Part shown: positions 12,974 to 64,000 of the stretch, in pieces
Numbering within the stretch: the first letter of the stretch is position 1
Layout of the letters: every line of letters begins with the position of its first letter
Source: Candidatus Moraniibacteriota bacterium
GTDB lineage: Bacteria > Patescibacteriota > Minisyncoccia > Moranbacterales > UBA1568
DNA length: 64,000 nucleotides
Direction: 5' to 3'
Assembly (NCBI GenBank): GCA_963778555.1
Contig: CAVZUR010000003.1
Span: 21,067 to 85,066 of the forward strand
The notes under the pieces: model-generated
Seen by the model: only the letters and a program-made list of their open reading frames with translations
What the model was told of the DNA's origin: nothing
The model's database searches: none
Program-made: the position numbers and the translations under genes

Positions 12974-13024
12974 CCAGCAGACACCTGAGCCTGAGACAAC
13001 ACAACCTCGGGCGGTTTCGCTTGA

Positions 13025-13075: not shown

Positions 13076-13172
13076 GGTTTTCCCCTGAAAGTGAAGCTCT
13101 TTCCAGGTACTTCATCATCCTCTCAAAAGAACGGGTTGCGTTCGTACATTTCTAACGGGGCAAGAAATCCCC

Positions 13173-14441
13173 TCAGGGCAGAAAGCGCCGGAACAGGCCC
13201 TTGGCCTGACCAGCCAAGCCACCCCAATCACCCGGAATGCGGCCGAGAAATTTCGAGGCGCGGCCGAAGGTGAAGCCCTCACCCGTATCGCCGTCAGCCT
13301 GCGACAACAGCAACAGTCCCACCACCGTCGCCGACGCGGGGCTGTCGACCTGATCGAGAATGCCGCCGAGCGGTTTCGGATAGCCAATCTGCGCCGGCAG
13401 TCGCAATTTTCTTTTGGCGAGATCGACCGAACCAGGCACGAGAATGCCGCCGCCGGTCAAGATCACGCCCGCCGGCAGGAGCGCTTCGCGATTGATAGAT
13501 TTGAGTTCGAGATTGACGTAATGGAAAATTTCTTCGAGCCGCGCTTCGATAATCTCGGCGACATGATGGCGCGAGATCTCATCGTTCTCCTGCGAATCGA
13601 ATTGGGAAAGATCGATCGCTTCTTTCTTACCGATCTCGCTCGGAATCGCGTGGCCATACTGGACCTTCACCGCTTCGGCGACATCGATCGATGTCCGGAG
13701 GCCGATGGCGATGTCATTGGTCACGTGGCTGCCGCCGACGGGCAAGACCGCCAGGTGGAGGAGATCGCCGTCTTCGAAAACGGCCAGGGATGTGGTGTTG
13801 GCGCCGATATTGACGAGTACGACACCAAGCTCTTTCTGCTTGGGACTGAGAATGGCTTCGGCCGAGGCGAGCGGTTCGGCGATGAAATGATGGGCGGTGA
13901 TACCGGCGAGCTCCAGACTCCGGACGAGATTCTTCAGATGATTGCTCCCCGTCCCGACCACGAGCGAAGAGAGTTCAAGCCGGACGCCCCGGAGACCGAT
14001 AGGGTCTTTGATATTCGCTTGATCGTCGAGCCGGTAGTGCTGCGGGACGACATGGAGGATCTCTTTGTTGGCACCGAGGATGGTCCGCGCCTGTGTTTCC
14101 TCGACGATGCGGGCGAGATCGTCCTCGGTGACCTCGCCGTCCGCCTTGCCGACGGCAATCACGCCGATCGCAGACTGGGCGAACAGATCCGATCCCGAAA
14201 CGGAACAGGCGACCGAATTGGTCGCGACGCCCGCCATGCCTTCCGCCGCCTCGAGGGCGGCATTGATGGATTTGGCGACCTCTTCCGGCTGGACGACGAT
14301 GCCGCGCCGGATGCCGACTGAAGGAACAGCGCCGACGCCGATGACCTTCAGCGGTCCATCGTCATGCGGCAAGAGAGCGATGACCGCCCGAACGGTCGCC
14401 GAGCCGATATCGAGGCCGACAATGTGCTGTGATTTCGCCAT
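13173..14441 (-). CDS. ftsA: Cell division protein FtsA
   Basis: 422-aa actin-fold protein (DIGS start, SHSP70-like motifs); located upstream of ftsZ as usual. Confidence 0.9.
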   Translation of the reverse strand: MAKSQHIVGLDIGSATVRAVIALLPHDDGPLKVIGVGAVPSVGIRRGIVVQPEEVAKSINAALEAAEGMAGVATNSVACSVSGSDLFAQSAIGVIAVGKADGEVTEDDLARIVEETQARTILGANKEILHVVPQHYRLDDQANIKDPIGLRGVRLELSSLVVGTGSNHLKNLVRSLELAGITAHHFIAEPLASAEAILSPKQKELGVVLVNIGANTTSLAVFEDGDLLHLAVLPVGGSHVTNDIAIGLRTSIDVAEAVKVQYGHAIPSEIGKKEAIDLSQFDSQENDEISRHHVAEIIEARLEEIFHYVNLELKSINREALLPAGVILTGGGILVPGSVDLAKRKLRLPAQIGYPKPLGGILDQVDSPASATVVGLLLLSQADGDTGEGFTFGRASKFLGRIPGDWGGLAGQAKGLFRRFLP

Positions 14442-14532
14442 AGAGAGAGGAGCAAGAAAAGAAAGACGAGAGATTCCCGCTCATGCGCCTCATTATACCC
14501 CAAGAGAAACATGCCTGCCACCGACTGCGCGG

Positions 14533-14907
14533 CTACCAGACGTACGGGAGAAAAATGACAGCGCCCGCGATGGCGGCGCCGACGGAGGCGATGAGCACTG
14601 ACCCGGCCACGAGATCCTTGATCACTCTCACATAGGGATGGATCCGGGGCTTCATCATATCGAGCATGCGCTCGAACGAAGTATTCACCAGCTCGAGCGA
14701 GAGGACGAGGACGGTGACAATTGCCAGGGTTGCTCGCTCATTGCCAGACAACGGATAATGCCAGGCTAAAAAAGCGACCACCAGCGCGACAGCCAGTTCG
14801 ATATGGAAATTGCGCTCTTCCCGGACCGCGTAGGCGATACCGGCAAAGGCATGTCGGAAACTCCGGAAAAACTTATGCATGCGATTTGGTTTTCTTCTTT
14901 CCCACAT
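14533..14907 (-). CDS. dgkA: Diacylglycerol kinase / undecaprenol kinase family
   Basis: 124-aa three-TM protein with the DgkA signature region (ERNFHIEL...ELVNTSFE). Confidence 0.8.
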   Translation of the reverse strand: MWERRKPNRMHKFFRSFRHAFAGIAYAVREERNFHIELAVALVVAFLAWHYPLSGNERATLAIVTVLVLSLELVNTSFERMLDMMKPRIHPYVRVIKDLVAGSVLIASVGAAIAGAVIFLPYVW

Positions 14908-15370
14908 GTGCGGCTGGAGCCAGCCGATCAGTCACGGCATCTTGGATCTGAAACATCCGTTCCTCATGGTCGAAGCCGGCCAAATGGAGGACGCCATGCG
15001 CGAACACGTAGGTGAACTCACGCCTCCATGATACACCATCCTCGGCCGCCGAACGAGCGATGAAATCGGGCGAAAGCACAATCTGACCGAGTTCGATCGG
15101 TCCGGTCAGCGGCGCAGTGGCCAGTGCTTCCACGCTCTCGAAAGAGCCGAAGGAGAGGATATCGGTCGGTTTCTCGGTACGACGATATTCGCTGTTGAGC
15201 GCGGCGATCTCGGCGTCGGACACGCAGGCGACATCGAGACTCACCGTCTGTGCTGACCCGAAACGCCGCGGAAATGCCCGCGTGAGGCTCTCGCGGATGA
15301 TCCGACGGAGAAAAAAAAGCGAAAGCCCGTTCAGGGCTTCCTCTCCGCTTACGGTCAGTCGGATCCGCAT
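14873..15370 (-). CDS. ybeY: Endoribonuclease YbeY (rRNA maturation factor)
   Basis: HGVLHLAGFDHE zinc-binding motif. Confidence 0.85.
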   Translation of the reverse strand: MRIRLTVSGEEALNGLSLFFLRRIIRESLTRAFPRRFGSAQTVSLDVACVSDAEIAALNSEYRRTEKPTDILSFGSFESVEALATAPLTGPIELGQIVLSPDFIARSAAEDGVSWRREFTYVFAHGVLHLAGFDHEERMFQIQDAVTDRLAPAAHVGKKKTKSHA

Positions 15371-18597: not shown

Positions 18598-19275
18598 TCA
18601 GTAAAGCGCTATCTCGTCGAGCGGCCAGGCTCGGAGAAGCACCCGGCCAATGACGGCAGTCCGATCGATCGGACCGAATGCTCGTGAATCATAACTGAAA
18701 CTGCGATTATCACCGAGGACGAAGTATTGGGATTCGGCAACAGCAGTTTTCTTCATGTCCGAGGTTTTGACTGCTGGATCGAGATAGGCTGATTCATCGA
18801 GCGCGTATCCGTCCGGATGGACCGCATTATAGATGTAGACCCGTCCACCTCGGATCTCGACGGCCTCGCCCGGGAGTCCGATCACCCGTTTGATGAAGTA
18901 TTGGCTCGGGTCTTTCGGAAAGCGGAACACGATCGGCTGTTGCCGGCCGAGCTCACGGAACGGCGTTGTCTTAATATCCGCCACCGGAATCGTGGTCTGC
19001 TTATAGCCGAACTCGCTGATCACGAGGTATTCCCCATCGTCAAAATTCGGCTCCATGGAGGAACCTTGGACAAAGAACGGTTGGAATAAAAAGGCTCGAA
19101 TCGGTATAATGACGACCGCAGCCAACACGAGAATTTTCACCATTTCTAGCAAGAGTTCTGTCGTGGTGAGGTACTCTTCCTCCGGTTCAACGGGGGCTGA
19201 GACGCGCGGTGCCGATAGATTTTCTGTCATAGTGACTGATTCTTGGGAATCAAAGATGACGTGAGAGTAGGTCAT
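18598..19275 (-). CDS. lepB: Signal peptidase I (S26 family)
   Basis: SSMEP catalytic Ser box, GDNR motif, N-terminal TM. Confidence 0.85.
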   Translation of the reverse strand: MTYSHVIFDSQESVTMTENLSAPRVSAPVEPEEEYLTTTELLLEMVKILVLAAVVIIPIRAFLFQPFFVQGSSMEPNFDDGEYLVISEFGYKQTTIPVADIKTTPFRELGRQQPIVFRFPKDPSQYFIKRVIGLPGEAVEIRGGRVYIYNAVHPDGYALDESAYLDPAVKTSDMKKTAVAESQYFVLGDNRSFSYDSRAFGPIDRTAVIGRVLLRAWPLDEIALY

Positions 19276-36171: not shown

Positions 36172-38539
36172 CTACATCTGCCACTTGTCGCGAGCTGATT
36201 GATCCGCGAGCGGATCATCACCGTACTGCTTCCCTTCTTCAAGGGTCTTTTGGAGAACCTCGCGTTTTTTGTTCACCTCGGGTCCGACCACACCGCGCTG
36301 CTCCAAGGTCTGCATCACGCGCGCCGCTTTGGGATAGCCTATTTTGAGAAATGTCTGGAGGTATGTCGTCGATGCCCGCTGCGTTTCCACAACAAGCTTC
36401 TTGGCCGCTTCATAAATCGGATCATGCTCGTCCTCGTCGGAGCTGACACCGTCCAGATCAATCACATTCTCTTCGCCGCCGAAATCATCGCCAATCTCGT
36501 CCATCCCCTTCTCGATTTTCTGTCGCTCAAGGAAACGGACGACCTTGCCGACCTCATCTTCGGAAACGAACACCCCCTGGATGCGCTGAAGATTCGATGT
36601 TTCCGCCGAAGAATACAGCATATCGCCATTCCCCAAGAGCTTCTCCGCGCCACCGGTATCGAGAATGGTCCGTGAATCAACGTTGGACTTCAGCTTGAAA
36701 GAAATGCGTGCCGGCATGTTCGCTTTGATGAGACCCGTGACGACATTTACCTCGGGACGTTGGGTTGCGAGTACGAGATGAATACCAGCTGCACGACCCT
36801 TCTGAGCCAGCAGGATAATCTTGGCCTCTACTTCCTTGCCATGCGCCACCATGAGATCGGCCATCTCATCGATAACGATGACGACCTGGGGCATCGGAAG
36901 CAGCTCTTCCTCGCGGACTTCGCTCGTTTCAGCATCAACAACGCGTTTCTTCTCGCCCCTCGCGAGCTTTTCCCGATATGAAGTAATATCGCGCGACCCG
37001 ATCGCTTCAAGCGACTTGTACCGCCGCTCCATTTCTCCGACCGCCCATTTCAAAGCATTCACCGACTTTGTGATTATCGACGATAACATCCGTCTTCAGG
37101 TGCGGAATCCCTTTATAGAGCGAGAGTTCGACGCGCTTCGGGTCGACAAAGATGAACTTGAGATCCTCGGGAGAATTCTGATACAGGAGAGAGAGGATGA
37201 GCGTGTTGATGCACACGCTCTTGCCCGACCGAGTCGTCCCCGCAATCAGAAGATGCGGCATCCGACCGAGGTCGGCGTAGATCGGACGGCCAGACACATC
37301 TTGGCCAAGAACGATCGTCAGATCGGATTGCCGCTCGCGAAATTCCTTTGATTGGAGGAATTCTCGGAGCCGAACATTCACTTTCGCTTTGTTCGGCACT
37401 TCGATACCGATGAGCGACTTGCCGGGAATCGGTGCTTCAATCCGGATATGCTGCGCGGCGAGGGCGAGGGCAAGATCATTGTAGAGCGGTGTGATGCTCG
37501 AAATCTTCACACCAACCGCCGGTCGGAATGTATACTGCGTCACGGTCGGACCGACTTGGACTTCGCCCGGCTCAACGTCGATATGAAAATGCTTCAGGGT
37601 ACGGATAATGATATCTTTGTTCTGCTCGATATCGCCACCCCCACCTTTCGCATCGGAGGCTGCCAAGAGTTCTAGCGGCGGGAGTTCCCACTGCACGCGC
37701 CGCCGTCGCGGTCGGATGAAAGCGGGAACGAGTACGGTTTCATCGTCGCTTCCTTCGGCGACTGGCGCGGTCTCGATCTTCGTTTCCTCAGCACCGGCAA
37801 AGCGGATATTCTGGATATTTTCTTCATGTGGCACCGGCTCCGCGGCGGGAGTCTTCCCATCCGACGGCGTGACTGATTCCACCAGCGGAACCGCCTCGAG
37901 TGCGGTTGAAAGCGAAAGTGCCGGATCAGATACAAGCGGCGCAGCGCCCTCCGCGACGGCATCCGTCGACCCGATTGATTCTTCAGGTCGGAAACGGACA
38001 ATGAGCGCTTCGAACCAGTGGAGCAGCGAGACATTGAAAGCCGCGATGACGCCCGAAACGAACAGCGTGAAGAGCACCACGAAGGCTGCAATCTTTCCCA
38101 TCACTCCATCGAGCAGACTGGAGAGAAGATAGCCGATGAACCCACCGCCCTCTCCGGCTTGTGCCACCGAGCGCAGCGCTTTGGCCGAATCCCCGAGAAA
38201 GAGATGTGACAGTCCCAGGAAAGAAAAGAAAGCGAACCCGAGCCCGGCATACTTGATCGTATCCGCAAGTGTTGTTTCATGGCGCCGGATGATGGTATAG
38301 CCGATGAGCGGGAGGAGCGGGAGAAGCAGCCACTTGCTCCAGCCGACAGAAAGCCCGACCGCCCGGTCCACCCAGCGGCCGAAAGATCCTGCTTGGTCGA
38401 TGAACGAAAGAAAGAAAAGAACAGCCAGCGCAAAGAGAAAAAGAGCCGCGATACCACGTTTGGCGTCGCTCCCGAGGGCTTTTTTCTTCTCTTTCTCGAG
38501 CGCCGCTTCGGCCGCTTCGATTTTCTTTTTCCGTCCCAT
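36172..38539 (-). CDS. ftsK: DNA translocase FtsK/SpoIIIE, split by a frameshift near 37007-37089
   Basis: N-terminal 4-TM region. Motor domain Walker A GTTRSGKS in ORF 37007..38539. Walker B/gamma domain (VVIVIDEMADLM...winged helix) in ORF 36172..37089. The two ORFs overlap by 83 nt. Confidence 0.85.
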
Positions 38540-39074: not shown

Positions 39075-46138
<7,064 letters not shown>

Positions 46139-47878: not shown

Positions 47879-48271
47879 TCAATCAACTCGGCGCGAGAGA
47901 AGCAGCGCAAAGCCGGTCACGAGGAGAATCAAGAGACCCACGACGAGTTGTCCGACGCCAGGAATTCCCGCAATCTGAGTGATAACCTCGGCGGCGCCGG
48001 AAAAAAGGAACACGATACCGACACCCAGGAGGAGGAGCCCGAACAGACGCTGCACCGCCCGATTGATAACCGATTGGGCCCGGTCTTCAGCAATACTCGA
48101 GATTCGGTCGATGAAGCTTTCGACTGTGCCGAACATACGCTCGACGAAATACGGGATGAAGCTCCAGCGCTCGGGGCCACTCTCTTCTTTACTGATTTTT
48201 TTTGCGTTCTCGGTCATACAATTAGCGACGATTAATCTGCTTGTATCGGTTATCGAGCACTGAGATAGCAT
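47879..48271 (-). CDS. Holin-X-like (holin superfamily III) two-TM membrane protein
   Basis: ~120 aa, two TM helices. Adjacent to a DUF883 gene, as is typical for this family. From memory, unverified. Confidence 0.4.
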   Translation of the reverse strand: MLSQCSITDTSRLIVANCMTENAKKISKEESGPERWSFIPYFVERMFGTVESFIDRISSIAEDRAQSVINRAVQRLFGLLLLGVGIVFLFSGAAEVITQIAGIPGVGQLVVGLLILLVTGFALLLSRRVD

Positions 48272-49605
48272 CGTTCACCGTCCGTTCACCGCGCACCACC
48301 ACATTGATGGCATCGACCAAAAGACTCTCCACTTGCTCCGTATTGCCCGGTTTCCAACTCTTGGCGATGAGATTGCCCGACGCGAAAGATCCAAGCACAA
48401 CATCGCCCTTCTGCGCCTCGATGAGGTCACGCCGTGCCGCCGGCTTCTTCGTCATTTCCAGGTACTTCTTGGCTGGATCGAAGGGAATCGTGGCCTCCAT
48501 CATCTGTCCCGAAAGCGCGTTCGCCAGACTGATCGTCTTACTCGGATGAGGGAGGGTCAGATAGGAGAAAAGCTGCCATGCCTCGTGGACACGAACCTTC
48601 TGATACGTTTCGGCCGAGAGGACCAGTTCCGGCTTAGTTGAATTGGCCACTACCTGCGTCTTGTTCTTGGTCACGGCGTAGCCCCAGTAATTGGCAAAAT
48701 TAACCGGGGGCTGGTCTTTGAACTGCGGGATAGGCGCGACGGCGAAATTCAGTTTGGCATTCTTCTGCTTGATCGTCGGGTAATGGTAGGAATAGTTGAT
48801 CATCATGCCGAGCGTCCCCTCATAGAAGGCGTCGATGGAGATAATGCTGGCGCTGATTCCAGGTATAGAGCGGGAGACCGAGGCGAGAGAAACTTGTGTA
48901 GAACTCGAGTGCCCGATGGTCCGACTGATCATTGAAATTGGCATCAGTAATCGTCCCACCGTACTGCATGATGAGGTTGAGGAGAATATCTGAAGAGCGG
49001 TTCACGTTATCTCCCGCGCCAAGTGCGACGGCCGCCTGATTGATATTGCCAAATTCATCGATCCGTTTGAGGAGTGGCACCATGGCGACAAGCTCCTCCC
49101 ACGTCTTGGGCGGAGCGGCAATGCCGGCCGCATTGAAGATATCGCGGTTGTAATACAGAGCGAGCGAATCCACTGAAAGCGGCACTGCCATGACCCGCTT
49201 GTCTTTATCGACAAAATCATCCGCAACGACATCGACGAACACATCCCGAATGGTCTTTTCGGTCATGATTTCTGGCGGCGCAGCGACGGCCTTGTCAGCA
49301 AAACTGGTGAGCCAGGTATTCTGCATCATGAAGATATCTGGGCCATTGCCCGCAGCCATGGCATTCAGTAGGTCCTCTTTATACGTTTCGGGCGTGACCT
49401 TCCGATACTTGATGTCTTTGACGTGGGAATTCATTTTCTTGTAGTCATTGACGGACTGGTTGAAGGCGTCCGAATCATCAAAAGTACCCCAAACTTCGAG
49501 GGTGAGCTCATAAGGTGTGACGGCCGCCTCGCCGCAGCCCGAAAGCATCAGCAGCGTGGCACTGAGGAGACCGATCGAAAGCAAATGTGAGCGACGTCGA
49601 GGCAT
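48222..49605 (-). CDS. ABC transporter extracellular solute-binding lipoprotein (family 1, sugar-type), split by a frameshift near 48820-48960
   Basis: Lipobox LSGC near the N-terminus. Two overlapping ORFs (261 + 245 aa) together make a ~450-aa SBP. Confidence 0.7.
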
Positions 49606-54144: not shown

Positions 54145-55682
54145 GTGGTTGACCAAAGCCGCGTGTTAGACTGGAAATATATGCATACGACGCTTCCGGA
54201 GCCTATCTTTGAAACGCTCACCGCCTTGGAGCAGGCCGGTTTCAAAGCATACATCGTGGGCGGATCGCTCCGCGACCTCCTTCTCGGACGGCCACCCAAA
54301 GACTGGGACCTCACGACTGACGCGCAGCCTGGAGCGGTCCAAAAGCTCTTTCCCGATTCGGTATACGAAAATACCTTTGGCACGGTCGGCGTGAAAGTCG
54401 CCCGTTTTCTCCCTTCGACTCCAGACACACATGAGCACGACATTATCGAAGTGACGACCTTTCGGACTGAGCGTACGTATAGCGATGGACGGCATCCCGA
54501 TACCGTCGCATTCGTCACCACCGTCGAAGCAGACCTCGCGCGACGTGACTTCACTGTGAATGCGATGGCGGGGCAAGTCACTGGAACGGCTGGCTCAGTC
54601 AATATTGAAATTATCGATCCTTTTGGAGGTCAGAGCGATATTCAGAAAAAACGCTCCGCGCCGTCGGTAAACCCGAGGAACGCTTCACAGAAGATGGACT
54701 GCGTCTCATGCGCGCACTTCGACTGGTCGTGGAACTGAGCACGGCCGAAAAGGAGCGGCCGGACTGGTCCATCGAAGCGGAGACGGCGGCGGCGCTTCAA
54801 GCGTGCTCGAACCGGCTGCAGTCAGTCGCTTTCGAACGGATTCGGGATGAATTTTCACGTATCATTCTTTCACCGTATCCGAGCCAAGGTGTAACGCTTC
54901 TCTTGGAAACTGGACTCCTCCAATACATCATTCCTGAGCTCGTCGAGGGCGTCGGCGTCACACAGAACCTCCACCATATCTATACCGTCTGGGAGCACAA
55001 TCTTCGCGCGCTCGCGACATGTCCGTCTCAGAAGCTATCCGTCCGTTTGGCGACGCTCCTCCATGACGTCGGCAAACCGAGGACGAAGCGTGGCGAAGGC
55101 CATAACTCGACGTTCTATAATCACGACCATGTCGGTGCACGCATGACGAAGAAGATCCTCGAGCGCCTACGCTACCCGAAAAAAATCGTTGACCATGCTG
55201 CCATGCTCGTCGATAACCACCTCTTCTACTACAATGTCGGCGAAGTGACAGAAGCCTCGGTCCGGCGACTCATCAAACGCGTGGGTTTGGAAAATATGGA
55301 TGATCTCATGGCTGTGAGAATCGGCGATCGCCTCGGTTCCGGTGTTCCGAAAGCGAAACCCTATAAGCTCCGGCATCTCGAATACATGGTCGACAAAGTC
55401 TCACAGGATCCAACCTCCGTAAAAATGCTCAAGATTAACGGGTCCCAACTCATGGAAAAACTCGGTATCGTGCCCGGACCGAAGATCGGCGCGTTGCTCG
55501 ACTGCCTCCTCGCAGAAGTGATCGATAATCCGACCTTGAATACCGAATCGACACTTCTTGACCGGGCCCGACAACTCATGGATAATGACCTCGATGCGCT
55601 CCGCAGTTTGGCTCAGGAGCGCATCAATACGGAGCGTTCTGCTCTCGATACAGCCATACGCGGCCGGCATCACGTCACCTGA
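54145..55682 (+). CDS. cca: CCA-adding tRNA nucleotidyltransferase with HD domain, interrupted by a frameshift in an A6 run near 54650
   Basis: Pol-beta NTase head (GGSLRDLLLGRPPKDWDLTTD) in ORF 54145..54738. Continuation ...TLRAVGKPEERFTEDGLRLMRALRL and HD domain (LHDVGK) in ORF 54708..55682. Confidence 0.8.
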
Positions 55683-55845
55683 CGATTGAATTTCACCCGC
55701 TTTCAGAGGGTATAGAGGGTACCGGTCCGCTGACTGACAGCGTTTCTCTCTGTCACATTTCCGGGGCATAACCCCGTGAGAAACTGACTCCGTGAGAAAA
55801 TTATCAGAGGATTAACAGCGCGAGAATTGTGAGATTTTTTCTAAC

Positions 55846-55915
55846 GGGGCATAGTATAGTGGTAGTACATGCGCTTCGGGTGCGTAAGGTCTGGGTTCGA
55901 TTCCCGGTGCCCCGA
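55846..55915 (+). tRNA. tRNA-Pro (anticodon CGG)
   Basis: Acceptor GGGGCAT/GTGCCCC, anticodon stem TGCGC/GCGTA with loop TTCGGGT, T-arm CTGGGTTCGATTCCCGG. Parallels the tRNA-Pro(GGG) at 5397. Confidence 0.75.
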
Positions 55916-55983
55916 CTACCAATCATGTGATGGGGGAAGAATCTGCTGATCATCGCAAAAACCAGCGCTGCTAATTTGAAAGT

Positions 55984-56307
55984 TTGTTTTTTGTCATGCG
56001 ACTCCTCATTAGAAATCCCGCTGATAATCCGGTCACCCTCTTTCGGCGGGCGGGTTACGGCTTCCAACGAGAGGATGGGAAGGAGATGAGCTTCGTTCGT
56101 CCCTTGGCTCGAGCCGGCTACCCGCGCTTCCACTGTTACACGCAGTCTCATCCTGAGGGCATCGAATGCAATCTCCATCTCGATCAGAAACGGGAGACCT
56201 ATGGACGTGTCACGCGCCATCATGGCGAGTACACTGAAGAGGGGGCACTGGCTGCGGAAATTGAGCGCATCGAATCCCTCATCGGAACGCTGACACGTAT
56301 TGCTTGA
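55984..56307 (+). CDS. Hypothetical small protein (107 aa) embedded in the tRNA cluster
   Basis: ORF between tRNA-Pro and tRNA-Leu. His/Cys-containing; no recognisable family. Confidence 0.3.
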   Translation: MFFVMRLLIRNPADNPVTLFRRAGYGFQREDGKEMSFVRPLARAGYPRFHCYTQSHPEGIECNLHLDQKRETYGRVTRHHGEYTEEGALAAEIERIESLIGTLTRIA

Positions 56308-56462
56308 ATCCCCCAAGAAGCATCTCCTGGGGATGAGGAATGCGGCCCATCTGGAAATGCCGAAGCGACAGAATGGTCGTGTTGCCCCATTACTCATTTA
56401 CAAAAAGATACTGTAGCCCTGCTGTGGTGGTGGAATGGTAGACCTGCCCGCAGTGCCAGATG

Positions 56463-56547
56463 CCGAAGTGGTGGAATGGTAGACACACCAGCCTTAGGAG
56501 CTGGGGCCCGCAAGGGCGTGAGAGTTCGAATCTCTCCTTCGGCACCA
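56463..56547 (+). tRNA. tRNA-Leu (anticodon TAG), CCA encoded
   Basis: Acceptor GCCGAAG/CTTCGGC, anticodon stem CCAGC/GCTGG with loop CTTAGGA, long variable arm GGCCCGCAAGGGCGT, T-arm GAGAGTTCGAATCTCTC, 3' ACCA. Confidence 0.85.
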
Positions 56548-56621
56548 TACAATGGCAGGCGGGCACGCCTAAGCCTTAGGAGCTAGTGCTCATACGAGCA
56601 TGAGAGTTCGAATCTCTCCCA
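56548..56621 (+). other. tRNA-Leu-like 3' segment (CTTAGGA loop, variable arm, T-arm, CCACAGC-A-CCA). Its matching 5' acceptor half GCTGTGG lies at 56421-56427, upstream of the complete tRNA-Leu.
   Basis: Perfect 7-bp complementarity between 56421-56427 and 56612-56618. No local 5' acceptor strand. Confidence 0.35.
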
Positions 56622-56766
56622 CAGCACCAGAAAGGTAAGTGATACAGCAAGCCAACCTGAGAAGCAGGGACCAGCAAGGACCGTAAGGGTTCGGATGCCT
56701 CCTTTGACGTCAAAAAGAAGAGAACTTCCATTTTTTTGGGAAGCTCTCTATCTTTGGAAAGAGGTC

Positions 56767-59583
56767 TTATTCGGATGCACGCCGACTCCTGACGACAGCT
56801 CCTTCCGGTGTATTGGGAATGACCGCAAACACGACGCCCGACGCAAAGAGGATGAGGAAGACCGAGAAGAGCACTTTCAGCGAGAAGAGTACTGATGCCG
56901 GGAGATAGCTTGCCACGAGAGCATAGTATTTCTTCATGCCTGACTGCGCGACCGCGGCGCCATCTGGCTGTTCCACCTGCGTATTGGAACTGAAATACTT
57001 CTCCGTCATATCCAGCGCAGAAAGCCCCCAGATATCCTCCATGGCTTGTCGCATCACCGGGCTGGGCCGATACACGGACGAGAGCGAGACATTGTAGACC
57101 GACTTTCCAATCTTGTTGGCCGGAAAGGTAACCGCATTTGCCGTTCCGAGGACCACTCCATCCACACTCCAGGAATTTTCCAGCTGGGGCGGGGTCCGAG
57201 CACCGAGAAAATCAGGCGTGAACTGAGCCGTGAGTGCGACGACATTGCCCGCGGCGGTCTCGAGAGTATCTTTGCTCAATTCCGGATATACCTGTCCATC
57301 CGTATCAACATATTGTCCAAGAGCTTTCTGCCAGACGCTCCCGACTCCAGCGTTGGGAATAATCGCGACCTCCGGTTCGACGATCTTGAAGGCTCTCGAA
57401 ATCGTGATGACTTGTTCCTGGGATACGGCACTGTTGTACGCGCCTGTGACCTGATTCGCCGTGACCGTTATCGTGAACACGTCGCCCACGCTCCCGATGA
57501 TCGGAAAGAAGTTCATGCGCACCGGGGAAGTGTCATTGCAGCCGGCCGAGACCTTGGAATTACAAACGAGCGGCTGGCCATTAATCGTCCAGTTGAAATT
57601 CGTGAGCTGCTGGTTCGGCACGCTCACCCCGATGATCTCGTTCTTGATAACACGGCATAGCTTGGTTTCGAGACGAGCCACGGATTGGGCCTCCGGTCTC
57701 GGATCCGTCGAGGTGCCAGTGCAAATCTGTCCTCCCTGATCAAGTGAAACGCGCGCTGGATCGCCGGCGACCGTCACCCGGTGAGCCAGCATGCGGTCCT
57801 GGCTCGCGTTGAATTTAACCACCACACTGCTCCGTCCGCGACGACTGGCTCCCGACGAAAAATTCTCAGCGGCATCCACCCGGAAACGGAGGTAGCCGGT
57901 ATTATTCGGGAGCGCGCCGGGCGGTATGACACCATCCGTATTGCGGATATTCAGGTTGAGCTCGACTTTGTTCACGCCATTCCCGCGCACTTGGGACAGA
58001 AGCTTCCGGCCATTCGAAAGGTTGTTGAGTTGATTCGTGATATTCACCCAGGGATTGTTGGCCGGGGGATTCGAGGTTCCGTCCGGAGAAATCTCCACAC
58101 GCCAATCAAAATACACATCCTGCATGCCCTGCGCGCCATTATCAATCGAGGCTACCGCTTCCAAAACATCACCATCACCCTGCTCGCTCGTATCATTGAC
58201 GGGATCGTCTGGCGAAGCTGAGACGGAAAGTTCCAGATTCGTCGCCTGCCCACCTTCGGTCGGATCGACGAGATTCTCGATCAGACAGTCGTTCAAATCG
58301 ATCTCGATCGTCGGTATCACGATGGAATAGCCTTCAATGATTTTCGTGTAGGAACCGGTATCATTTGGGCGGCGGCAGCCGGATGTCTTATTCTTGGAAA
58401 AAGCCCACATAATCATATTCGATGAGTCCTTATGCTTTGTCGGAACCATCGACGTCCCTTCTACGACAACGCCAACCTTGTCACCCTTGATATAGTTCCA
58501 GGTAAACGTCTCACGGCCAAGCCCGATGACATTGGCTTCGTCTTTATTGCCATTGTCCGAAGTATCCGCATCATTCGGATTCGTCTGCCAGAAGCGTTCC
58601 TCCCCGGCACCAAAAACACCATCCCCCGAGGTAACCCCGGGTGCTACCGGAAACAGGTGTCGGCAGATGGGATTCGGCGGGGTACCGGAACTCGTGCAGG
58701 CAGTGATTGGCGTCTCACAGGTGGTCGCCCGGGCCGCATTCGCAACGCAACAGGGCGTGCCCGTGGTACATCCCACGACTCCCGCATCACCGCCTGCTGG
58801 ATCAGGATCGCAATAAGGCGTACCCGAGACATAGAAGGCGCCGCTCCCGACTCCCGTGAAGGGGACGCCGCTTACATTGGGATCAATCACGGTCGGAGTC
58901 ACGTCTTGTCCTTCTTGCATGCACACCGCTACGGATCCACTCGGACAGCCATCAAATGCAATGCTCGATGACCCGATAGCGATCTCATAGTTCTCGCCAT
59001 TCGTATTATCATGAAAAGCGCAATGGTTCGGGACGTTCACTCGATTATCTCCGCCAAACCTTGCCGCGTAACCATCCGCATCCGTATCCGCACCGTAATT
59101 TGCCGTGAGAACATCGAAATCATTGGAGGCCAATATCCGATGGGCGGCGATTTTCCAGTCATTGGGACCAATAAGGCCATTGCCGTCAAGATCGCAATCG
59201 GCTGTCACCGCGCCTGTCGCACAGACGGCTCGCTGCAGATACCAGGTAAAATATAGTTTACTTGTATCTGTTGAAAAATACGTCGGGAAAGAACGTGCCG
59301 TGACCTTTTCACCCTCCTTTGGGTCAGACGGCGAAAAGAAGAGCGATACCTCCGGCGAGACTTTTTTCCCGCCCGCGACATTGAGCGACTCGCCCTGATC
59401 CTGCATCGCGCCCGGATTGATGTGATAACGCTGTTCCATCTCCGCGGCGTTCTGTGAGGCCGAGGGAACACTCGGCGATCCAAAGAGCGCGGCCGCTGGC
59501 AGTGCAGAAGTCAGGAATATCTGCAGACCCAGCACACCACTGGCCAAGCGGAACCACTTTTTATTTTTCATGCGACTCAGCAT
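56767..59583 (-). CDS. Large (938 aa) Cys-rich surface protein with signal peptide and C-terminal TM followed by an RSRR tail
   Basis: N-terminal signal (WFRLASGVLGLQIFLTSALPAAALFG). Gly/Thr/Cys-rich regions. C-terminal TM then RSRRASE. Confidence 0.7.
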   Translation of the reverse strand: MLSRMKNKKWFRLASGVLGLQIFLTSALPAAALFGSPSVPSASQNAAEMEQRYHINPGAMQDQGESLNVAGGKKVSPEVSLFFSPSDPKEGEKVTARSFPTYFSTDTSKLYFTWYLQRAVCATGAVTADCDLDGNGLIGPNDWKIAAHRILASNDFDVLTANYGADTDADGYAARFGGDNRVNVPNHCAFHDNTNGENYEIAIGSSSIAFDGCPSGSVAVCMQEGQDVTPTVIDPNVSGVPFTGVGSGAFYVSGTPYCDPDPAGGDAGVVGCTTGTPCCVANAARATTCETPITACTSSGTPPNPICRHLFPVAPGVTSGDGVFGAGEERFWQTNPNDADTSDNGNKDEANVIGLGRETFTWNYIKGDKVGVVVEGTSMVPTKHKDSSNMIMWAFSKNKTSGCRRPNDTGSYTKIIEGYSIVIPTIEIDLNDCLIENLVDPTEGGQATNLELSVSASPDDPVNDTSEQGDGDVLEAVASIDNGAQGMQDVYFDWRVEISPDGTSNPPANNPWVNITNQLNNLSNGRKLLSQVRGNGVNKVELNLNIRNTDGVIPPGALPNNTGYLRFRVDAAENFSSGASRRGRSSVVVKFNASQDRMLAHRVTVAGDPARVSLDQGGQICTGTSTDPRPEAQSVARLETKLCRVIKNEIIGVSVPNQQLTNFNWTINGQPLVCNSKVSAGCNDTSPVRMNFFPIIGSVGDVFTITVTANQVTGAYNSAVSQEQVITISRAFKIVEPEVAIIPNAGVGSVWQKALGQYVDTDGQVYPELSKDTLETAAGNVVALTAQFTPDFLGARTPPQLENSWSVDGVVLGTANAVTFPANKIGKSVYNVSLSSVYRPSPVMRQAMEDIWGLSALDMTEKYFSSNTQVEQPDGAAVAQSGMKKYYALVASYLPASVLFSLKVLFSVFLILFASGVVFAVIPNTPEGAVVRSRRASE

Positions 59584-59585
59584 AA

Positions 59586-60341
59586 TTAGCGGAGGATGAG
59601 TACGAACGCGTCTGTCAGGAAAAGATAGAACCAGGTCGCCCCGAGACTGTACCAGATCGAGCGGGATTGGTAGGCAATCAGACCGGCGAGAGGAGCAAAA
59701 ATGAGCGCCGGTATTCGCGAGGCATCAATGCTGCCCCCGCCCGAGGCAAGCAGTGCGAACAACACGGCCTGCGCTGCTACCGACCACACTCCCCATTTCC
59801 GAAGCCAGAGCAGCATGATGAAACCGCGGAAAAATACTTCGAACATGAGGACGATGACCCCACTCAGCAGCAGCTCATAGAGCACGAAGAAAAAGAATTT
59901 CTCTTCAACCACGACCGGTAAGCGATAATCGGAGAGGAGCGGGGTGAAATTCCAAAGAACGAAGAGGGCACTGAGCGCCACGACGAGCGCCAGGACGCTG
60001 CCACCGATACCGGCCCAGATGTTCCCTCGCTGGAAACCGAGCGCAGAAAGCGGCCGTCCTAGCATTATTTTACAGTATAGAATCGGAATAACCAAAAAAA
60101 CAGCGATGGCGGCAATGAAGTTCTGCACCATCGGGGGAAAGTCACTGCCCTCCCCGATATATTCCAACAGCAACATCGAAGCGACAATCACGGTCGCCGT
60201 ACCGATAAACTCTTTGTGACGAGCGAGAAACGTAACGCTTCTTTCCAACACAGAGTCGAGAAGTTGCACATGAGACTCGCTTTCGGGAGTTTCCGGGTGC
60301 CGCTTCTGGCGCTCAACAGCCGTCGTTTTCATACCTCTCAT
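59586..60341 (-). CDS. Polytopic membrane protein with a CPBP/Abi-like EVFFRG motif but lacking the catalytic His motifs
   Basis: 251 aa, 6+ TM. EVFFRGF resembles CPBP motif 1, but no FxxxH/HxxxN follows. Confidence 0.4.
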   Translation of the reverse strand: MRGMKTTAVERQKRHPETPESESHVQLLDSVLERSVTFLARHKEFIGTATVIVASMLLLEYIGEGSDFPPMVQNFIAAIAVFLVIPILYCKIMLGRPLSALGFQRGNIWAGIGGSVLALVVALSALFVLWNFTPLLSDYRLPVVVEEKFFFFVLYELLLSGVIVLMFEVFFRGFIMLLWLRKWGVWSVAAQAVLFALLASGGGSIDASRIPALIFAPLAGLIAYQSRSIWYSLGATWFYLFLTDAFVLILR

Positions 60342-60384
60342 TGTAGCGCATTTAGTGCCTGCATTGCCCCGCTAGAAAAATGCA

Positions 60385-60957
60385 TTAGGCCGCCTTCCGA
60401 AACTGATCATCATTCGCCGCCGCTCCGCGCTCTTGATTCGCCTGCTCCTGAGCGGCCTGTTCCGCCTCGGCCGCCGCCTCTTGTTGCATCGCGACTTCCG
60501 CCGAGCGAAGCTGTCCGTTCAACTTCGGGATCGCCTGCTCCAGCTTTTCTGCCTCTCCTTTGGAAGCATCGGCGTCTTTTTTCGCCAGATGATACGCATA
60601 GAGGACGCTCGCCGTGCCGAACGGAATCAAGCTCAGGAACGGGATGAGGTCCAGGAGCGCAATGATGAAGAAAACGAAGCGCAGCCATAACTTCCCCCGA
60701 CCCCACATGAAGATGAAAAGATACACAGTGATCGGAAAACAGAAGAGCAGCCCGACAATAAGCTGCCCGAAGATGGGAATCGCACTGAGCGGATCAAAGA
60801 GGAAGTCCTTGGCCAGCACCAGCGTGAGCGGGATGAGGAAGACGGAGAGATCGCCTTCCCGCACTTTTCTCCGGTGCTCGGCAGCGAGGCTGACCGCTCT
60901 TCTCAGTTGTTCCCACTTGCTCCGATGGAATCTCTCCAGCGCGACGTTTCCAGCCAT
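60385..60957 (-). CDS. Hypothetical membrane protein (3-4 TM) with C-terminal Ala/Glu/Gln-rich coiled coil
   Basis: 190-aa ORF immediately downstream of VirB4. Confidence 0.45.
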   Translation of the reverse strand: MAGNVALERFHRSKWEQLRRAVSLAAEHRRKVREGDLSVFLIPLTLVLAKDFLFDPLSAIPIFGQLIVGLLFCFPITVYLFIFMWGRGKLWLRFVFFIIALLDLIPFLSLIPFGTASVLYAYHLAKKDADASKGEAEKLEQAIPKLNGQLRSAEVAMQQEAAAEAEQAAQEQANQERGAAANDDQFRKAA

Positions 60958-60963
60958 AGGACT

Positions 60964-63261
60964 TTAGGGGTTTTGGGCGTCGAACTCTTTCTTGGCATCC
61001 TCGATTTCGAGCAATTGGCGCGGGTCCGACGTGATGATCTGGTCCTCGCTGTACGACGCGATGACCTTGATCGCTGCATGCTTGGTCCCCGCAAAGAAAA
61101 TGCCTTCGCCGACATTCGATTCGAGCAGCAGGAATTTCTCATGATCGGTGAGATAGAACGTCTCCGTGATGAAATCGATCGAGGCGGGCGACTGACGCAA
61201 GAGGAGCTGCATCGACGAGTTCGTGATAATCGGCTTGCCGTAGCGCGACGACATGAAGTCGCTGATGTCCTGAGTGATGGTCGTGAGCCCGGTGTAGTAC
61301 TTGCGGCAGCGTTTGGCGATACCGAAGAGGAACGAGGCCGCGTCTTCATTCTGCATCATAATCCACGCCTCATCCACGACAATGATACGCTGGCGGAGCT
61401 TCGAACGGATGTCGTTCCAGATGTATTGCAGAATGATGTACATAGCCACCGGCCGCAGCTCCTCCTCAAGATCACGGATATTGAAGACAACGAGCTGATT
61501 GTCAGTATCGATATTCGTCTGCTGATTGAGAAAGCCAGAGAAAATACCTTCCGTGTACCGCTGGAGCCGGGCAGCGATCGAGTCCGCCCCTTCCATATTC
61601 TTCAGCACCGCGTACAAGTCTGACATCGTGGGGAACGATTGGGCCGTCAGGGATTCGAAATTCGAATCCTCATGGATATCGCGGATAGCGTACGCCTCAT
61701 GGATGGCTTGGTCGAGAATCGAGTCCTCCTCGGCTGACAGGGTTCCCAGCATTAGATGCAAGAGTCCGATGAGGTTGGCAATCGTATTGCGGAACACGCC
61801 GTCTCCCTCATCCTCGCCCGCGACTTTCGGCATATCGAACGGATTGAGGTGGACCTCGGAATTCAAGGAGATCTTCAAGAAAGCGCCCCCCACCGTTTCA
61901 CAGAGATGTTTGTACTCATTTTCCGGGTCGATGATGATCACACTCGATTCGAACATGAGCGCCCGCAACACCTCGAGCTTCACGGTATAGCTTTTTCCGG
62001 CGCCGGACTTGGCGAAGACGACCATATTCGCATTCTCCATCTTGAATCGGTCAAAGAGAATGAGGGAATTATTGTGACGGTTAATGCCATACAGGATACC
62101 CTCGTTCGAAGACAGGTCCGAAGACACGAATGGCAGCGTCGTCGAGAGCGGCTCGGTATTGAGATTATTGGCAACGTCAAGCGCGTCGTTGCCCAAAGGC
62201 CGCGTCGATGCGAAGCCGTCGTCCATCCGCAACACGGCTGTTTTGGTATAGACCAGCTGGGCTTCGAGGATCGCTTCTACCGACTGCACTTTCTGACCGA
62301 GATCCTTCTCGTCGACACCATACAGCATCATATAGAGCCCGAAGCGGAAAAACTTCTCCGTCCCCTGCTGAAGACGATCGCGCAGCTCTTCGATATTCTG
62401 GAGGGCCGCCTCGAGCACCGGGTCGCGGATCTTTCCGTCTTCGATTTCGATGTTCAGCTGGGACTGCACCTGGGTGGCGGATTTCCGGAGCTGCTTCAGG
62501 ATCTCGGCGGTTTCAATCGGATGAATGAAGAGCGCTGTGTCCATCGGAAAATCCAAATTGATAATCGGTGAAAACCAGTTAGTGGAAAGGAAGCGTGGGT
62601 AGGCAATCACGAACAAGGTGCGCGCCACGACATCGCCGATCTGTATCGTCGCGGGACTGACTCGAATCGCTGGTGGAGCAATCAAGTCTTTGATCGTCGC
62701 CAAACCTTTCTGATAGAGGGCTTCCGTCTCGGCGCTCTCACTCTTCACTGGCGCCGCTTTTTCCTTGAACATCCCTGAAAAGAGGTTCTTCTTGGCGGGT
62801 GTGGCAGCCCGTTTGTCATCCGCTGCAAACGCCTCGGTGGCAGCCGTCTTGGCCCACCCCATCCGATCATCCGCCGCCGGACGAGCGAGGTCGTCGAGAT
62901 CCGGAACCGCGACCGATTCGCGGGGTGGCCGAGCCGCTGCGGTTCGATACGCGCCCGTGGCTGGCGCGGCCACTTCCTCAATCGGCTCCAGGACTCTCGC
63001 CGCGGCTCTCGGCAGCGGTCGAGCCGAAGCCCTCAGCGGTGCTGGGGGAACGGGGGGCAAACCGGCTACCGGTTCCCAGGAATCCTTGAGCGGCTCGATA
63101 CCTTTCGCGTTAGGCTGCGCCGAAGGCAGCGCTTGAGCAGCACTCGTCGGCCGGCGCGGCGGAACTGATAATTGACCCAGTCCGCCCGCGTTCAACGCTG
63201 ATGCTTCCTCGGAGGAGGCAGACTTTATCGGTCGGTCGAAGATGATGAGTTCGCGTCCCAT
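60964..63261 (-). CDS. virB4: VirB4/TrbE/CagE-family type IV secretion ATPase (Gram-positive-type) with ~190-aa Pro/Ala-rich N-terminal extension
   Basis: Walker A FAKSGAGKS, Walker B IIVVDEAW, conserved IAPP...YPRF N-terminal region. Start placed at MGRELIIF, 4 nt after the upstream gene stop. Confidence 0.85.
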   Translation of the reverse strand: MGRELIIFDRPIKSASSEEASALNAGGLGQLSVPPRRPTSAAQALPSAQPNAKGIEPLKDSWEPVAGLPPVPPAPLRASARPLPRAAARVLEPIEEVAAPATGAYRTAAARPPRESVAVPDLDDLARPAADDRMGWAKTAATEAFAADDKRAATPAKKNLFSGMFKEKAAPVKSESAETEALYQKGLATIKDLIAPPAIRVSPATIQIGDVVARTLFVIAYPRFLSTNWFSPIINLDFPMDTALFIHPIETAEILKQLRKSATQVQSQLNIEIEDGKIRDPVLEAALQNIEELRDRLQQGTEKFFRFGLYMMLYGVDEKDLGQKVQSVEAILEAQLVYTKTAVLRMDDGFASTRPLGNDALDVANNLNTEPLSTTLPFVSSDLSSNEGILYGINRHNNSLILFDRFKMENANMVVFAKSGAGKSYTVKLEVLRALMFESSVIIIDPENEYKHLCETVGGAFLKISLNSEVHLNPFDMPKVAGEDEGDGVFRNTIANLIGLLHLMLGTLSAEEDSILDQAIHEAYAIRDIHEDSNFESLTAQSFPTMSDLYAVLKNMEGADSIAARLQRYTEGIFSGFLNQQTNIDTDNQLVVFNIRDLEEELRPVAMYIILQYIWNDIRSKLRQRIIVVDEAWIMMQNEDAASFLFGIAKRCRKYYTGLTTITQDISDFMSSRYGKPIITNSSMQLLLRQSPASIDFITETFYLTDHEKFLLLESNVGEGIFFAGTKHAAIKVIASYSEDQIITSDPRQLLEIEDAKKEFDAQNP

Positions 63262-63265
63262 GGCG

Positions 63266-63946
63266 TTAAGAGGATTGGAGCTCAATGCCCTCGACGCTCT
63301 TGACCACGGTCGCCGCGAACATCGATGGATTATAACTATTGTACAAAAGTTCAATCAGCTCCTCGGTCTGCAGCGCGGACGCCCGGATACCCATCGGGGA
63401 CAAGCCCGCGACGATATGCTCGACACGCTGGACGAGCTGCGTCCGATAGGTATCGAACAGTTCCGCTTTCAGGCCGGCCGTCTTCTTCTGATTGAAGATA
63501 CCGCCGAGCTTGCCGACTATGCCGCCTTGGGTGTTTTCCGCCGAAGAGAACGGCACGACGACATAGAAATACTTCGACATGATATTCGAGACTTCGGTCA
63601 GATTCTTGATGAAGCTCTGGTATTCCTTCATCTGAAAGCGCAGGAGCTCATTCGGTTGCTGCGTCTCCTTGCCTTTCAAGAGCTCAATGTAGGGACCGAT
63701 GTTGAAGCGGCGGGACTGCACGACGATCTGCACCGGAAAATCGAGCGAATTTAAAAAATTCTGATACTGCGAGATGATAGCATCCTGCTCCTCGCTCGAT
63801 TTCAGATCGAAATTGATTGATGACACCAACAGGACAGCCCGGAGCGCCCCTGTCTTCAAGATGAGCACGCCGTCGCGGATTTCCTCGACATCAACATATC
63901 GCTGCGTGCTCGACCCGCCGGATTTTTTTTTCGAAAGGAGTTCCAT
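63266..63946 (-). CDS. VirB4 N-terminal-domain-like protein (VirB3/4-like), separately encoded
   Basis: 226 aa. DGVLILKTGALRAVLLVSSINFDLKSSEEQDAIISQYQNFLNSLDFPVQIVVQSRR matches the conserved VirB4/TrbE N-terminal segment pattern. No Walker motifs. Confidence 0.45.
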   Translation of the reverse strand: MELLSKKKSGGSSTQRYVDVEEIRDGVLILKTGALRAVLLVSSINFDLKSSEEQDAIISQYQNFLNSLDFPVQIVVQSRRFNIGPYIELLKGKETQQPNELLRFQMKEYQSFIKNLTEVSNIMSKYFYVVVPFSSAENTQGGIVGKLGGIFNQKKTAGLKAELFDTYRTQLVQRVEHIVAGLSPMGIRASALQTEELIELLYNSYNPSMFAATVVKSVEGIELQSS

Positions 63947-63961
63947 ACAGTTGCGGGTCTA

Positions 63962-64000
63962 GCGATTATCCATCAGCTGGGCCAGACGGCGCAGCTCCTC
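63962..64000 (-). CDS. 3' end of a further minus-strand gene (...EELRRLAQLMDNR*), truncated by the window end
   Basis: Open frame to the window edge ending in TAG at ~63962. Confidence 0.3.

Follow-up and report, generated by a model that had tools for sequence, protein, structure and literature searches.

A type IV secretion-like gene cluster adjoining tRNA genes is part of the conserved core of Candidatus Moraniibacteriota

INTRODUCTION

The Patescibacteria, or candidate phyla radiation (CPR), make up a large share of uncultivated bacterial diversity. In a recent survey, their type IV secretion systems (T4SSs) have been described as chromosomal, and their VirB4 proteins were found to be monophyletic and akin to those of MPF-FATA (Quinonero-Coronel et al. 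2025, PMC12102498). In this study, we analysed a 64-kb stretch of DNA from a member of this group, Candidatus Moraniibacteriota, which is called the window in what follows. Its right end carries an operon for a T4SS-like apparatus, which is cut by the end of the window.

According to the same survey, homologues of TrsD, which are remotely homologous to the VirB4 N-terminus, are the most abundant partners of VirB4 in Patescibacteria; PrgI-type VirB3 and VirB6 are also present, as is VirB1, whose gene is linked to virB4 in Paceibacteria, and many genomes encode VirB2-like pilins. A relaxase is absent in most of them, homologues of the type IV coupling protein (T4CP) are usually encoded far from virB4, and in the class ABY1 the T4SS loci co-localise with competence and recombination genes (PMC12102498). 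In Saccharibacteria, it has been shown by transposon sequencing (Tn-seq) that a homologous cluster is essential for the epibiotic growth of Southlakia epibionticum, and this cluster has no recognisable coupling protein or relaxase (Wang et al. 2023, PMC10633639). A 2025 review describes the systems of this group as the first T4SS on which the survival of its own carrier has been reported to depend, and states that the essentiality in Saccharibacteria cannot stem from a functional interaction with ComEC (PMC12857230). Tubular structures at the parasite–host interface, possibly T4SS pili, have been described in a 2026 preprint, in which feeding on host RNA is proposed (10.64898/2026.06.21.733656).

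We show here that the window locus belongs to this known kind of T4SS and is not a new kind of system. The explanation that we consider highly probable is that the window holds the downstream two-thirds of a chromosomal T4SS-like gene cluster, and that this cluster is a core, anciently domesticated derivative of monoderm (MPF-FATA) conjugation machinery that has been inherited vertically.

RESULTS

The operon lies on the minus strand and encodes, in this order, a PrgI-family protein, a TrsD-like protein of 226 aa, VirB4, a membrane protein of 190 aa, a CPBP-like protein and a protein of 938 aa, with gaps of 12, 4, 6, 43 and 2 nt between the genes; it is followed by genes for tRNA-Leu and tRNA-Pro. 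Relatives were sought in one genome per GTDB species, which gave 251 genomes with a relative of VirB4, and the best 80 of these loci, 69–95% identical to the window VirB4, were fetched. All 80 come from metagenome bins, and their plausible names are nearly all Candidatus Moraniibacteriota or Moranbacteria, with a few Patescibacteria, Minisyncoccota, Paceibacteria or Parcubacteria; the many bins labelled 'uncultured Bdellovibrionales' among the VirB4-bearing relatives are evidently mislabelled. An independent Logan contig of 5.9 kb (L001), which starts at PrgI, is 100% identical to the window across the block. Since the window stops inside PrgI, the genes upstream of it were read in relatives with 92–95% VirB4 identity.

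The gene order is kept in about 55 of the 80 loci and runs through PcrA, Xer (on the opposite strand), a LysM-CHAP hydrolase, a VirB6-like protein, a soluble protein (p387), PrgI, the TrsD-like protein, VirB4, the 190-aa family (TM190), the CPBP-like protein and the 938-aa family (Big938) to tRNA-Leu(UAG), tRNA-Pro(CGG), the CCA-adding enzyme, IF-2 and DUF4446. A second clade of 21–25 loci keeps PrgI, the TrsD-like protein, VirB4 and the 190-aa family in rearranged surroundings. Across 34 species, identity to the window in the VirB4 core follows that in IF-2 closely (r = 0.97) and exceeds it on average (79% vs 71%), which makes VirB4 the better conserved protein. The GC content is 0.545–0.568 in the block and about 0.55 in the window, and it is flat across the junction. 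The remaining window genes have housekeeping functions (gapA, fba, comEC, ftsA, ftsZ, hisS, recA, ftsK, rpoB, rpoC and infB).

No repeat of a tRNA 3′ end brackets the block, either in the window or in the relative L003, whose locus spans the whole block; the tRNA-derived repeats that do exist are 41–82 nt apart and all lie within 210 nt. The sole recombinase nearby is a XerC/D-like tyrosine recombinase (TIGR02225, 250 bits), which is found about 6 kb upstream of PrgI in the relatives, beside PcrA. Neither a relaxase nor a coupling ATPase was detected in the block, in the flanking open reading frames (ORFs) or in most window ORFs of at least 300 aa, a scan that left out many smaller ORFs, and neither was detected in the six genes that precede the TrsD-like gene in L003 or in about 9 kb of upstream sequence in relatives. 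The FtsK protein of the window (36172–38539) has the housekeeping domain set (4TM, alpha and gamma).

Because the synteny is shared by about 55 species, VirB4 diverges in step with IF-2, the GC content is flat and no att-type repeat is found, a reading of the block as mobile or accessory DNA fails. The block is lineage-core and vertically inherited, not an island, and its adjacency to tRNA genes is ancestral synteny, not an integration junction. An earlier sequence-only reading of the window had taken the block for accessory content, perhaps an integrative and conjugative element (ICE) at a tRNA hotspot, and had proposed to look for att repeats and to compare close relatives. Both comparisons went the other way, as no tRNA 3′-end repeat bounds the block in the window or in L003, and the block occupies the same place between PcrA/Xer and the CCA enzyme/IF-2 in about 55 species and is not strain-specific. 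As the outcome contrary to its view, that reading had named a conserved core that bears no mobile signatures and has no other T4SS parts nearby; we find such a core, but further T4SS parts, namely PrgI and the VirB6-like and CHAP proteins, do lie just beyond the window end in L001 and in close relatives. The other option it had offered, a non-conjugative T4SS-like apparatus for cell–cell interaction, is favoured over an ICE by the evidence presented here.

The inventory of parts in the same reading has held up well, and every element that it listed is present in the sequence. This applies to the Gram-positive-type, T4SS-like character of the module; to the VirB4 ATPase with intact Walker A and B motifs, for which the proposed VirB4 profile search was positive; to the Pro/Ala-rich N-terminal extension, put at about 190 aa and here measured as about 175 aa; to the separate 226-aa protein resembling the VirB4/TrbE N-terminal domain; to the two small polytopic membrane proteins after VirB4, one of them with a degenerate CPBP-like motif; to the Cys-rich 938-aa surface protein with its transmembrane (TM) segment and RSRR anchor; to the abutting tRNA-Pro and tRNA-Leu genes; and to the absence of a visible relaxase or coupling protein within the scans described above. 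Small corrections concern the VirB4 start and the coordinates of the 938-aa gene, which is indeed there but sits outside the range 59586–64000 that had been given for the module.

The longest ORF of VirB4 (60964–63354) starts with TTG, encodes 796 aa and overlaps the upstream gene; because of this overlap the start was taken to be the ATG at 63261, which lies 4 nt past the upstream stop and gives a protein of 765 aa. Its core (60964–62736, minus strand), comprising the rest of the N-terminal domain and the P-loop C-terminal domain, matches the NCBIfam family of VirB4-like conjugal transfer ATPases of the CD1110 type (NF045971) with 362.3 bits vs a cut-off of 325, over profile positions 172–730, and the Pfam family P-loop_TraG with 104 bits vs 25.8, while the matches to TIGR00929 and PF03135 fall under their cut-offs. 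The Walker A (AKSGAGKS) and Walker B (IIVVDE) motifs are intact in the translation. The C-terminal domain resembles the solved VirB4 domain of the Gram-positive Thermoanaerobacter (4AG5, E = 1e-51) and, more distantly, TrwK of R388 (E = 3e-9). These matches identify the protein, at the level of family profiles, as a Gram-positive CD1110-type VirB4/TrbE-family ATPase, in which the N-terminal domain is incomplete, NF045971 being covered from position 172 only.

VirB4 also carries an N-terminal extension (62737–63261, minus strand) of about 175 aa from the ATG, or about 205 aa from the TTG, of which 50% is Pro, Ala, Ser, Thr or Gly. The extension is real and coding. Its frame contains 0 stops vs 5 in each of the other two frames, the gaps in the alignment with the closest relatives L002 and L003 measure 21, 6, 3, 6 and 3 nt and are thus all multiples of three, and in nearly all loci the ORF is open from a few bases past the upstream stop. 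At the protein level both ends are kept, with MGRELIIFDRPIK or MGRELIIFDRPIKK at the start and KKxLFxGxFxxK or KKxLFxGLFxKK at the end, around a hypervariable middle. The length varies between 15 and 294 aa across species and is shortest, at about 15–20 aa, in the sister clade. The extension is probably an intrinsically disordered, expandable arm.

The missing N-terminal part appears to be supplied by the TrsD-like protein (63266–63946, minus strand), in which the VirB4 N-terminal domain is encoded as a gene of its own. The protein matches N-terminal parts of VirB4 profiles (NF045975, positions 97–234, E = 6.5e-10; NF045971, positions 4–123) and the TrsD/TraD family NF041427 (E = 2e-7; 31 bits, below the cut-off of 200), and its precomputed Pfam assignment is PF26593, TraC-like. 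An AlphaFold2 (AF2) model of it, with a predicted local distance difference test (pLDDT) score of 64.7, was compared with the PDB by Foldseek, and the top 12 matches were all to R388 TrwK/VirB4, though weak (E = 0.017–0.3). The gene is separate and upstream of VirB4 in 79 of the 80 loci, that is, in all fetched loci reaching that far, at a distance of 0 to about 900 nt from the aligned VirB4 core. There are 5238 detectable homologues, of which the 120 listed are about 217–251 aa long and hence of stand-alone size. The two proteins tile one canonical VirB4, and therefore form a split VirB4 of the TrsD plus TrsE kind known from pGO1-type plasmids. The gene that leaves the window upstream of them, of which only the 3′ end is seen (63959–64000, minus strand; ending in EELRRLAQLMDNR before the stop), encodes by sequence similarity a PrgI-family, VirB3-like protein: the full gene in L001 encodes 130 aa and matches PF12666 (PrgI), and the L003 orthologue also matches PrgI (E = 2.5e-11).

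Directly downstream of VirB4, a member of the 190-aa family, as defined by jackhmmer, is present in 78 of the 78 loci with sequence at that place, in both clades. The window protein (60385–60957, minus strand) has 3 predicted TM segments and a coiled-coil-like tail and gave no match in Pfam, NCBIfam or PDB profile searches. It is a new small membrane family and part of an invariant core together with PrgI, the TrsD-like protein and VirB4. In L003 (11807–14668) and L009 (about 11767–14931) the membrane domain is fused to a C-terminal region of about 800–900 aa, so that species differ greatly in the C-terminal part of this gene. The region in L003 contains an HG...C motif, read by eye only, that is reminiscent of clan-CD cysteine peptidases.

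The CPBP/Rce1-like protein (251 aa; 59586–60341, minus strand) is a degenerate polytopic membrane protein that just passes the cut-off of the Rce1-like Pfam family PF02517 (25.4 vs 22.4 bits) and matches NF040590 (E = 4.6e-7). Across its 54 orthologues, conservation is limited to the E and R of motif 1 (yEvFFRG; xExxxR), and none of them has the catalytic His motifs (FxxxH and HxxxN/D) or the first Glu of EExxxR. As both His motifs are missing, canonical protease activity is doubtful, and the idea of an active sorting protease was not upheld as a firm claim.

The 938-aa protein (56767–59583, minus strand) is a secreted, Cys-rich and Ig-like surface protein. It has a signal peptide, 18 Cys residues, of which 14 are invariant among 66 homologues, and at the C-terminus a conserved KKYxAxxASYxPxSxxFxxK/R motif followed by a TM helix and a basic tail (RSRR in the window). 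Its AF2 model (pLDDT 82.6) is beta-rich, with a Cys-rich N-terminal part and then tandem beta-sandwich domains, for which Foldseek returned only generic repeats of the tandem Ig, macroglobulin, cadherin and adhesin kinds; profile searches of Pfam, NCBIfam and the PDB placed it in no known family. Most of the 333 homologues detected have no source name, and those with a name come from Moraniibacteriota or Moranbacteria (one from Minisyncoccota), except one bin labelled Undibacterium. A hairpin can be read after the gene, with a loop of 9 nt; as a consensus terminator scan did not flag it, we make no strong claim for it as a terminator.

L082 (1402–5305) carries a distantly related CPBP-like gene (34% identity) and, next after it, a gene for a 1085-aa protein that is homologous to the 938-aa protein (32% identity) and has the same C-terminal anchor. 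The genes before this pair are dksA-like and lspA, and VirB4 is not immediately upstream; since the pair occurs away from VirB4, the two genes form a separable module. The link between the pair and the T4SS consists in conserved synteny, which is not proof of function.

Just past the window end, the close relatives encode a LysM-CHAP peptidoglycan hydrolase, a polytopic membrane protein of 620–840 aa and a soluble protein of about 390 aa (p387, 387 aa), the last without relatives in Pfam, NCBIfam or PDB profile searches. By analogy with Gram-positive systems, the hydrolase would be functionally VirB1-like. The polytopic protein has a signal peptide and at least 6 TM segments. Of its 33 orthologues, 11 resemble the CD3337/EF1877 mobilome membrane protein family NF046089 (best E = 1.3e-8), 2 resemble pLS20_p028 and 1 Bacteroides TraJ, all below the cut-offs, and a Pfam search of all 33 gave no matches; with moderate confidence, the protein may be called VirB6-like.

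Two genes for VirB2-like pilins (PF18895) are found directly upstream of PrgI in the sister clade (L057–L081; e.g. L065, 7263–8539). A jackhmmer search seeded with the L065 pilins detected them in 21 sister-clade loci; neither the main-clade loci (within 10 kb) nor the 64-kb window yielded any. The main clade thus has the CPBP-like/938-aa pair and no nearby pilins, and in the sister clade pilins are present while no such pair is detectable near VirB4. For the loci near VirB4 that were compared, these opposite patterns are suggestive of alternative surface organs.

On the plus strand, the tRNA-Pro(CGG) gene occupies 55845–55916 and a tRNA-Leu(UAG) gene 56462–56547; among 14 main-clade relatives checked, tRNA-Leu is at the same position in 14 and tRNA-Pro in 13. 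The tRNA-Leu gene of the window, intact and called by both ARAGORN and Rfam, is nested in an interrupted second tRNA-Leu(UAG) (56421–56629), at a site with the repeats D1 and D3. The relatives L002, L003 and L036 have a single native gene, and this is what the outer pieces match (5′, 56421–56443; 3′, about 56562–56629, the latter with 81% identity to the 3′ part of the inner gene), down to the acceptor stem GCUGUGG/CCACAGC. The insert, about 120 nt long, is flanked by imperfect 13-bp inverted repeats, and the minimum free energy fold of the region is a tRNA within a tRNA (−89.9 kcal/mol, z = −2.8). It is absent from the seven relatives aligned, and exact-pattern scans of metagenome and viral collections gave no other copy. 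A small insertion or replacement event could account for it, and so could an artefact of the assembly.

The spacer between tRNA-Pro and tRNA-Leu is 545 nt long, is of similar size in relatives, and contains a small ORF (56087–56308, plus strand, about 73 aa) with a GGAGG-like ribosome-binding site. In L003, an exact 21-nt duplicate of an internal part of tRNA-Pro (18827–18847 and 18890–18910) lies between the two tRNA genes, 63 nt from the original. Many essential and housekeeping genes of the window, namely rpoC/rpoB (40948–46138), ftsK, comEC (7123–9442), cca (54145–55682), an SBP gene (48222–49605) and ftsZ, contain frameshifts and appear as overlapping ORFs in different frames. The cca gene of relatives is a single frame, which suggests that the assembly has indel errors and that these are not pseudogenes. 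No such break affects the T4SS genes of the window, as confirmed by the identical L001.

DISCUSSION

Going by the architecture of the R388 and Gram-positive T4SSs, PrgI and the TrsD-like protein would hold a VirB4 hexamer at the membrane, and the VirB6-like protein, perhaps with the 190-aa protein, would form the membrane channel. Together these five proteins would make up an ATP-driven translocon in a single membrane, for which the CHAP hydrolase would open the cell wall and in which ATP hydrolysis by VirB4 would drive assembly or translocation. The CPBP-like protein and the 938-aa protein may, more tentatively, supply surface contact. As no relaxase or coupling protein is linked to the cluster, a non-conjugative role is suggested; such a machine would not conjugate DNA and would more likely move macromolecules, either proteins or nucleic acid, across a contact with a host cell, a role that has been proposed for the Saccharibacteria homologue. 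A role in host-interface translocation, that is, in the export or exchange of macromolecules, is by analogy an evenly balanced possibility.

Several points weigh against this picture of the machine. Its function is carried over by homology alone, and from a different class, the Saccharimonadia. A coupling protein or relaxase could be encoded elsewhere in the genome. The label VirB6-like comes from weak, below-cut-off matches (11 of 33 orthologues to NF046089), and both this gene and that of the CHAP hydrolase were read in relatives with 92–95% VirB4 identity and not in the window genome itself. In addition, the CPBP-like/938-aa pair also occurs without an adjacent VirB4, in L082, and its membership in the machine is uncertain.

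A different function, which is conceivable but which we consider unlikely, is the import of nucleic acid, with the cluster working as a DNA-uptake machine like the Helicobacter ComB T4SS or the archaeal Ced system and taking in host or environmental DNA. Import requires neither a relaxase nor a T4CP, Patescibacteria are unable to make nucleotides, and in ABY1 the T4SS loci lie beside competence and recombination genes, as stated in PMC12102498. The preprint mentioned above furthermore ties the parasitism of Patescibacteria to the uptake of host RNA and describes possible T4SS pili at the interface (10.64898/2026.06.21.733656). VirB4 is weakly similar to CedB (E = 2e-12) and CedD; however, the CedB likeness reflects the shared P-loop domain and is far below the cut-off. 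Likewise, the PcrA helicase and the Xer recombinase are conserved neighbours, but they are probably housekeeping copies. At a distance of about 50 kb from the operon, the window also encodes a ComEC channel (7123–9442), whose Competence and Lactamase_B domains are separated by a frameshift, and the genome therefore has a separate DNA-uptake route; according to the review, the essentiality of the T4SS in Saccharibacteria cannot stem from a functional interaction with ComEC (PMC12857230).

That the cluster is an ICE or the remnant of one, inserted at tRNA-Leu/tRNA-Pro and with its relaxase, coupling protein and integrase past the window end, is very improbable. It is true that VirB4 belongs to the conjugative CD1110 family, that two tRNA genes adjoin the block, one of which, the tRNA-Leu of the window genome, shows signs of a small insertion event, and that relatives encode a tyrosine recombinase about 6 kb upstream of PrgI; it has also been proposed that these systems were acquired horizontally, long ago, from conjugative elements of monoderms (PMC12102498). 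However, block, tRNAs and flanks are the same in about 55 species, VirB4 diverges as IF-2 does without a shift in GC content, and the recombinase is XerC/D-like and keeps its position next to PcrA in all relatives. In addition, the tRNA-derived repeats lie within 210 nt of each other and do not bracket the block, and scans of the 64-kb window and of about 9 kb upstream in relatives gave no relaxase or T4CP. In scanning CPR genomes, a VirB4 gene beside tRNA genes should not count as a mobile element. A decaying, non-functional remnant of an old conjugation system is barely credible: canonical parts are missing (relaxase, T4CP, a recognisable VirB8 and, in this clade, pilins), VirB4 is split and the CPBP-like protein has lost its catalytic histidines, but the VirB4 core is more conserved than IF-2 and has intact Walker motifs, the split is kept in 79 of 80 loci, the small protein has 5238 homologues (stand-alone in size among the 120 listed), and all block genes are intact in an assembly with frameshifts in rpoB, rpoC, ftsK and cca.

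With the cluster read as a domesticated, vertically inherited T4SS, the Moraniibacteriota possess a T4SS-like machine that is as conserved as a translation factor, and its minimal invariant core can be defined as PrgI, the TrsD-like protein, VirB4 and the new small membrane protein. What differs between the sister clades is the extracellular equipment (pilins or a large anchored surface protein), and it is there that host specificity would be expected. A rather improbable, speculative elaboration is that the T4SS of the main clade gave up its VirB2-like pilins and uses the anchored, disulfide-rich Ig-like protein as its host-contact organ; the degenerate CPBP-like partner would handle this protein via its KKYxAxxASYxPxSxxF-TM-basic tail, and the disordered arm of VirB4 would recruit substrate without a coupling protein. 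The C-terminal motif of the 938-aa protein is not known to have been described before. The sections of PMC12102498 that were consulted make no mention of the VirB4 extension or of the membrane protein after VirB4, and its main text none of the 938-aa protein, CPBP/CAAX proteins, tRNAs or integrases. Within the limits of that source, we found no prior description of three lineage details, namely the VirB4 extension with its range of 15–294 aa, the membrane protein that always follows VirB4, and the lack of pilin genes near the operon in this clade.

Among systems of known architecture, the CPBP/Rce1 glutamic intramembrane proteases, including the myxosortase-like MrtA family, share with the 251-aa protein the polytopic fold and a Pfam score above the cut-off. 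The gene next to it encodes a large secreted protein whose C-terminus consists of a conserved motif, a TM helix and a basic tail, an arrangement that resembles a sorting enzyme and its substrate. In contrast to these proteases, however, the window protein and its 54 orthologues do not have the catalytic His residues and the first Glu of EExxxR, and the substrate-like tail of the 938-aa protein has no Cys.

The best-scoring VirB4 family, with 362 vs 325 bits, is that of the CTn2/CD1110-type ICE T4SSs of Clostridia (NF045971), and the VirB6-like protein is weakly similar to the CD3337/EF1877 mobilome membrane family. CD1110 differs in being one undivided chain of about 750 aa, encoded by a mobile element that also carries the VirD4-like CD1115 and a relaxase; the window locus is not mobile, and the first ~170 profile positions belong there to a protein of their own. 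This division is instead found in the systems of the pGO1, pSK41 and pIP501 type (TrsD/TraD plus TrsE/TraE), in which a small homologue of the VirB4 N-terminus is likewise encoded just upstream of a shortened VirB4, and in which a VirB3-like protein and a CHAP-type hydrolase follow the same logic. Those systems, however, are plasmid-borne with a relaxase, a coupling protein (TrsK/TraJ) and oriT, while the window locus is on the core chromosome with none of these linked, and the TrsD match of the 226-aa protein is below the family cut-off (31 vs 200 bits).

The closest agreement is with the T4SSs of Patescibacteria as they are presented in PMC12102498 and PMC10633639. In the main Moraniibacteriota clade, unlike in that description, no VirB2-like pilins are found within 10 kb or in the 64-kb window, and the window locus adjoins infB and tRNA genes, not dnaA. 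In both cases, however, the cluster is chromosomal, contains an MPF-FATA-related VirB4 with a TrsD-like neighbour and a PrgI-type VirB3, and has no relaxase or coupling protein within it. A cell-wall hydrolase near virB4, described for Paceibacteria in that survey, is seen here in the relatives, together with a polytopic membrane protein that may correspond to VirB6.

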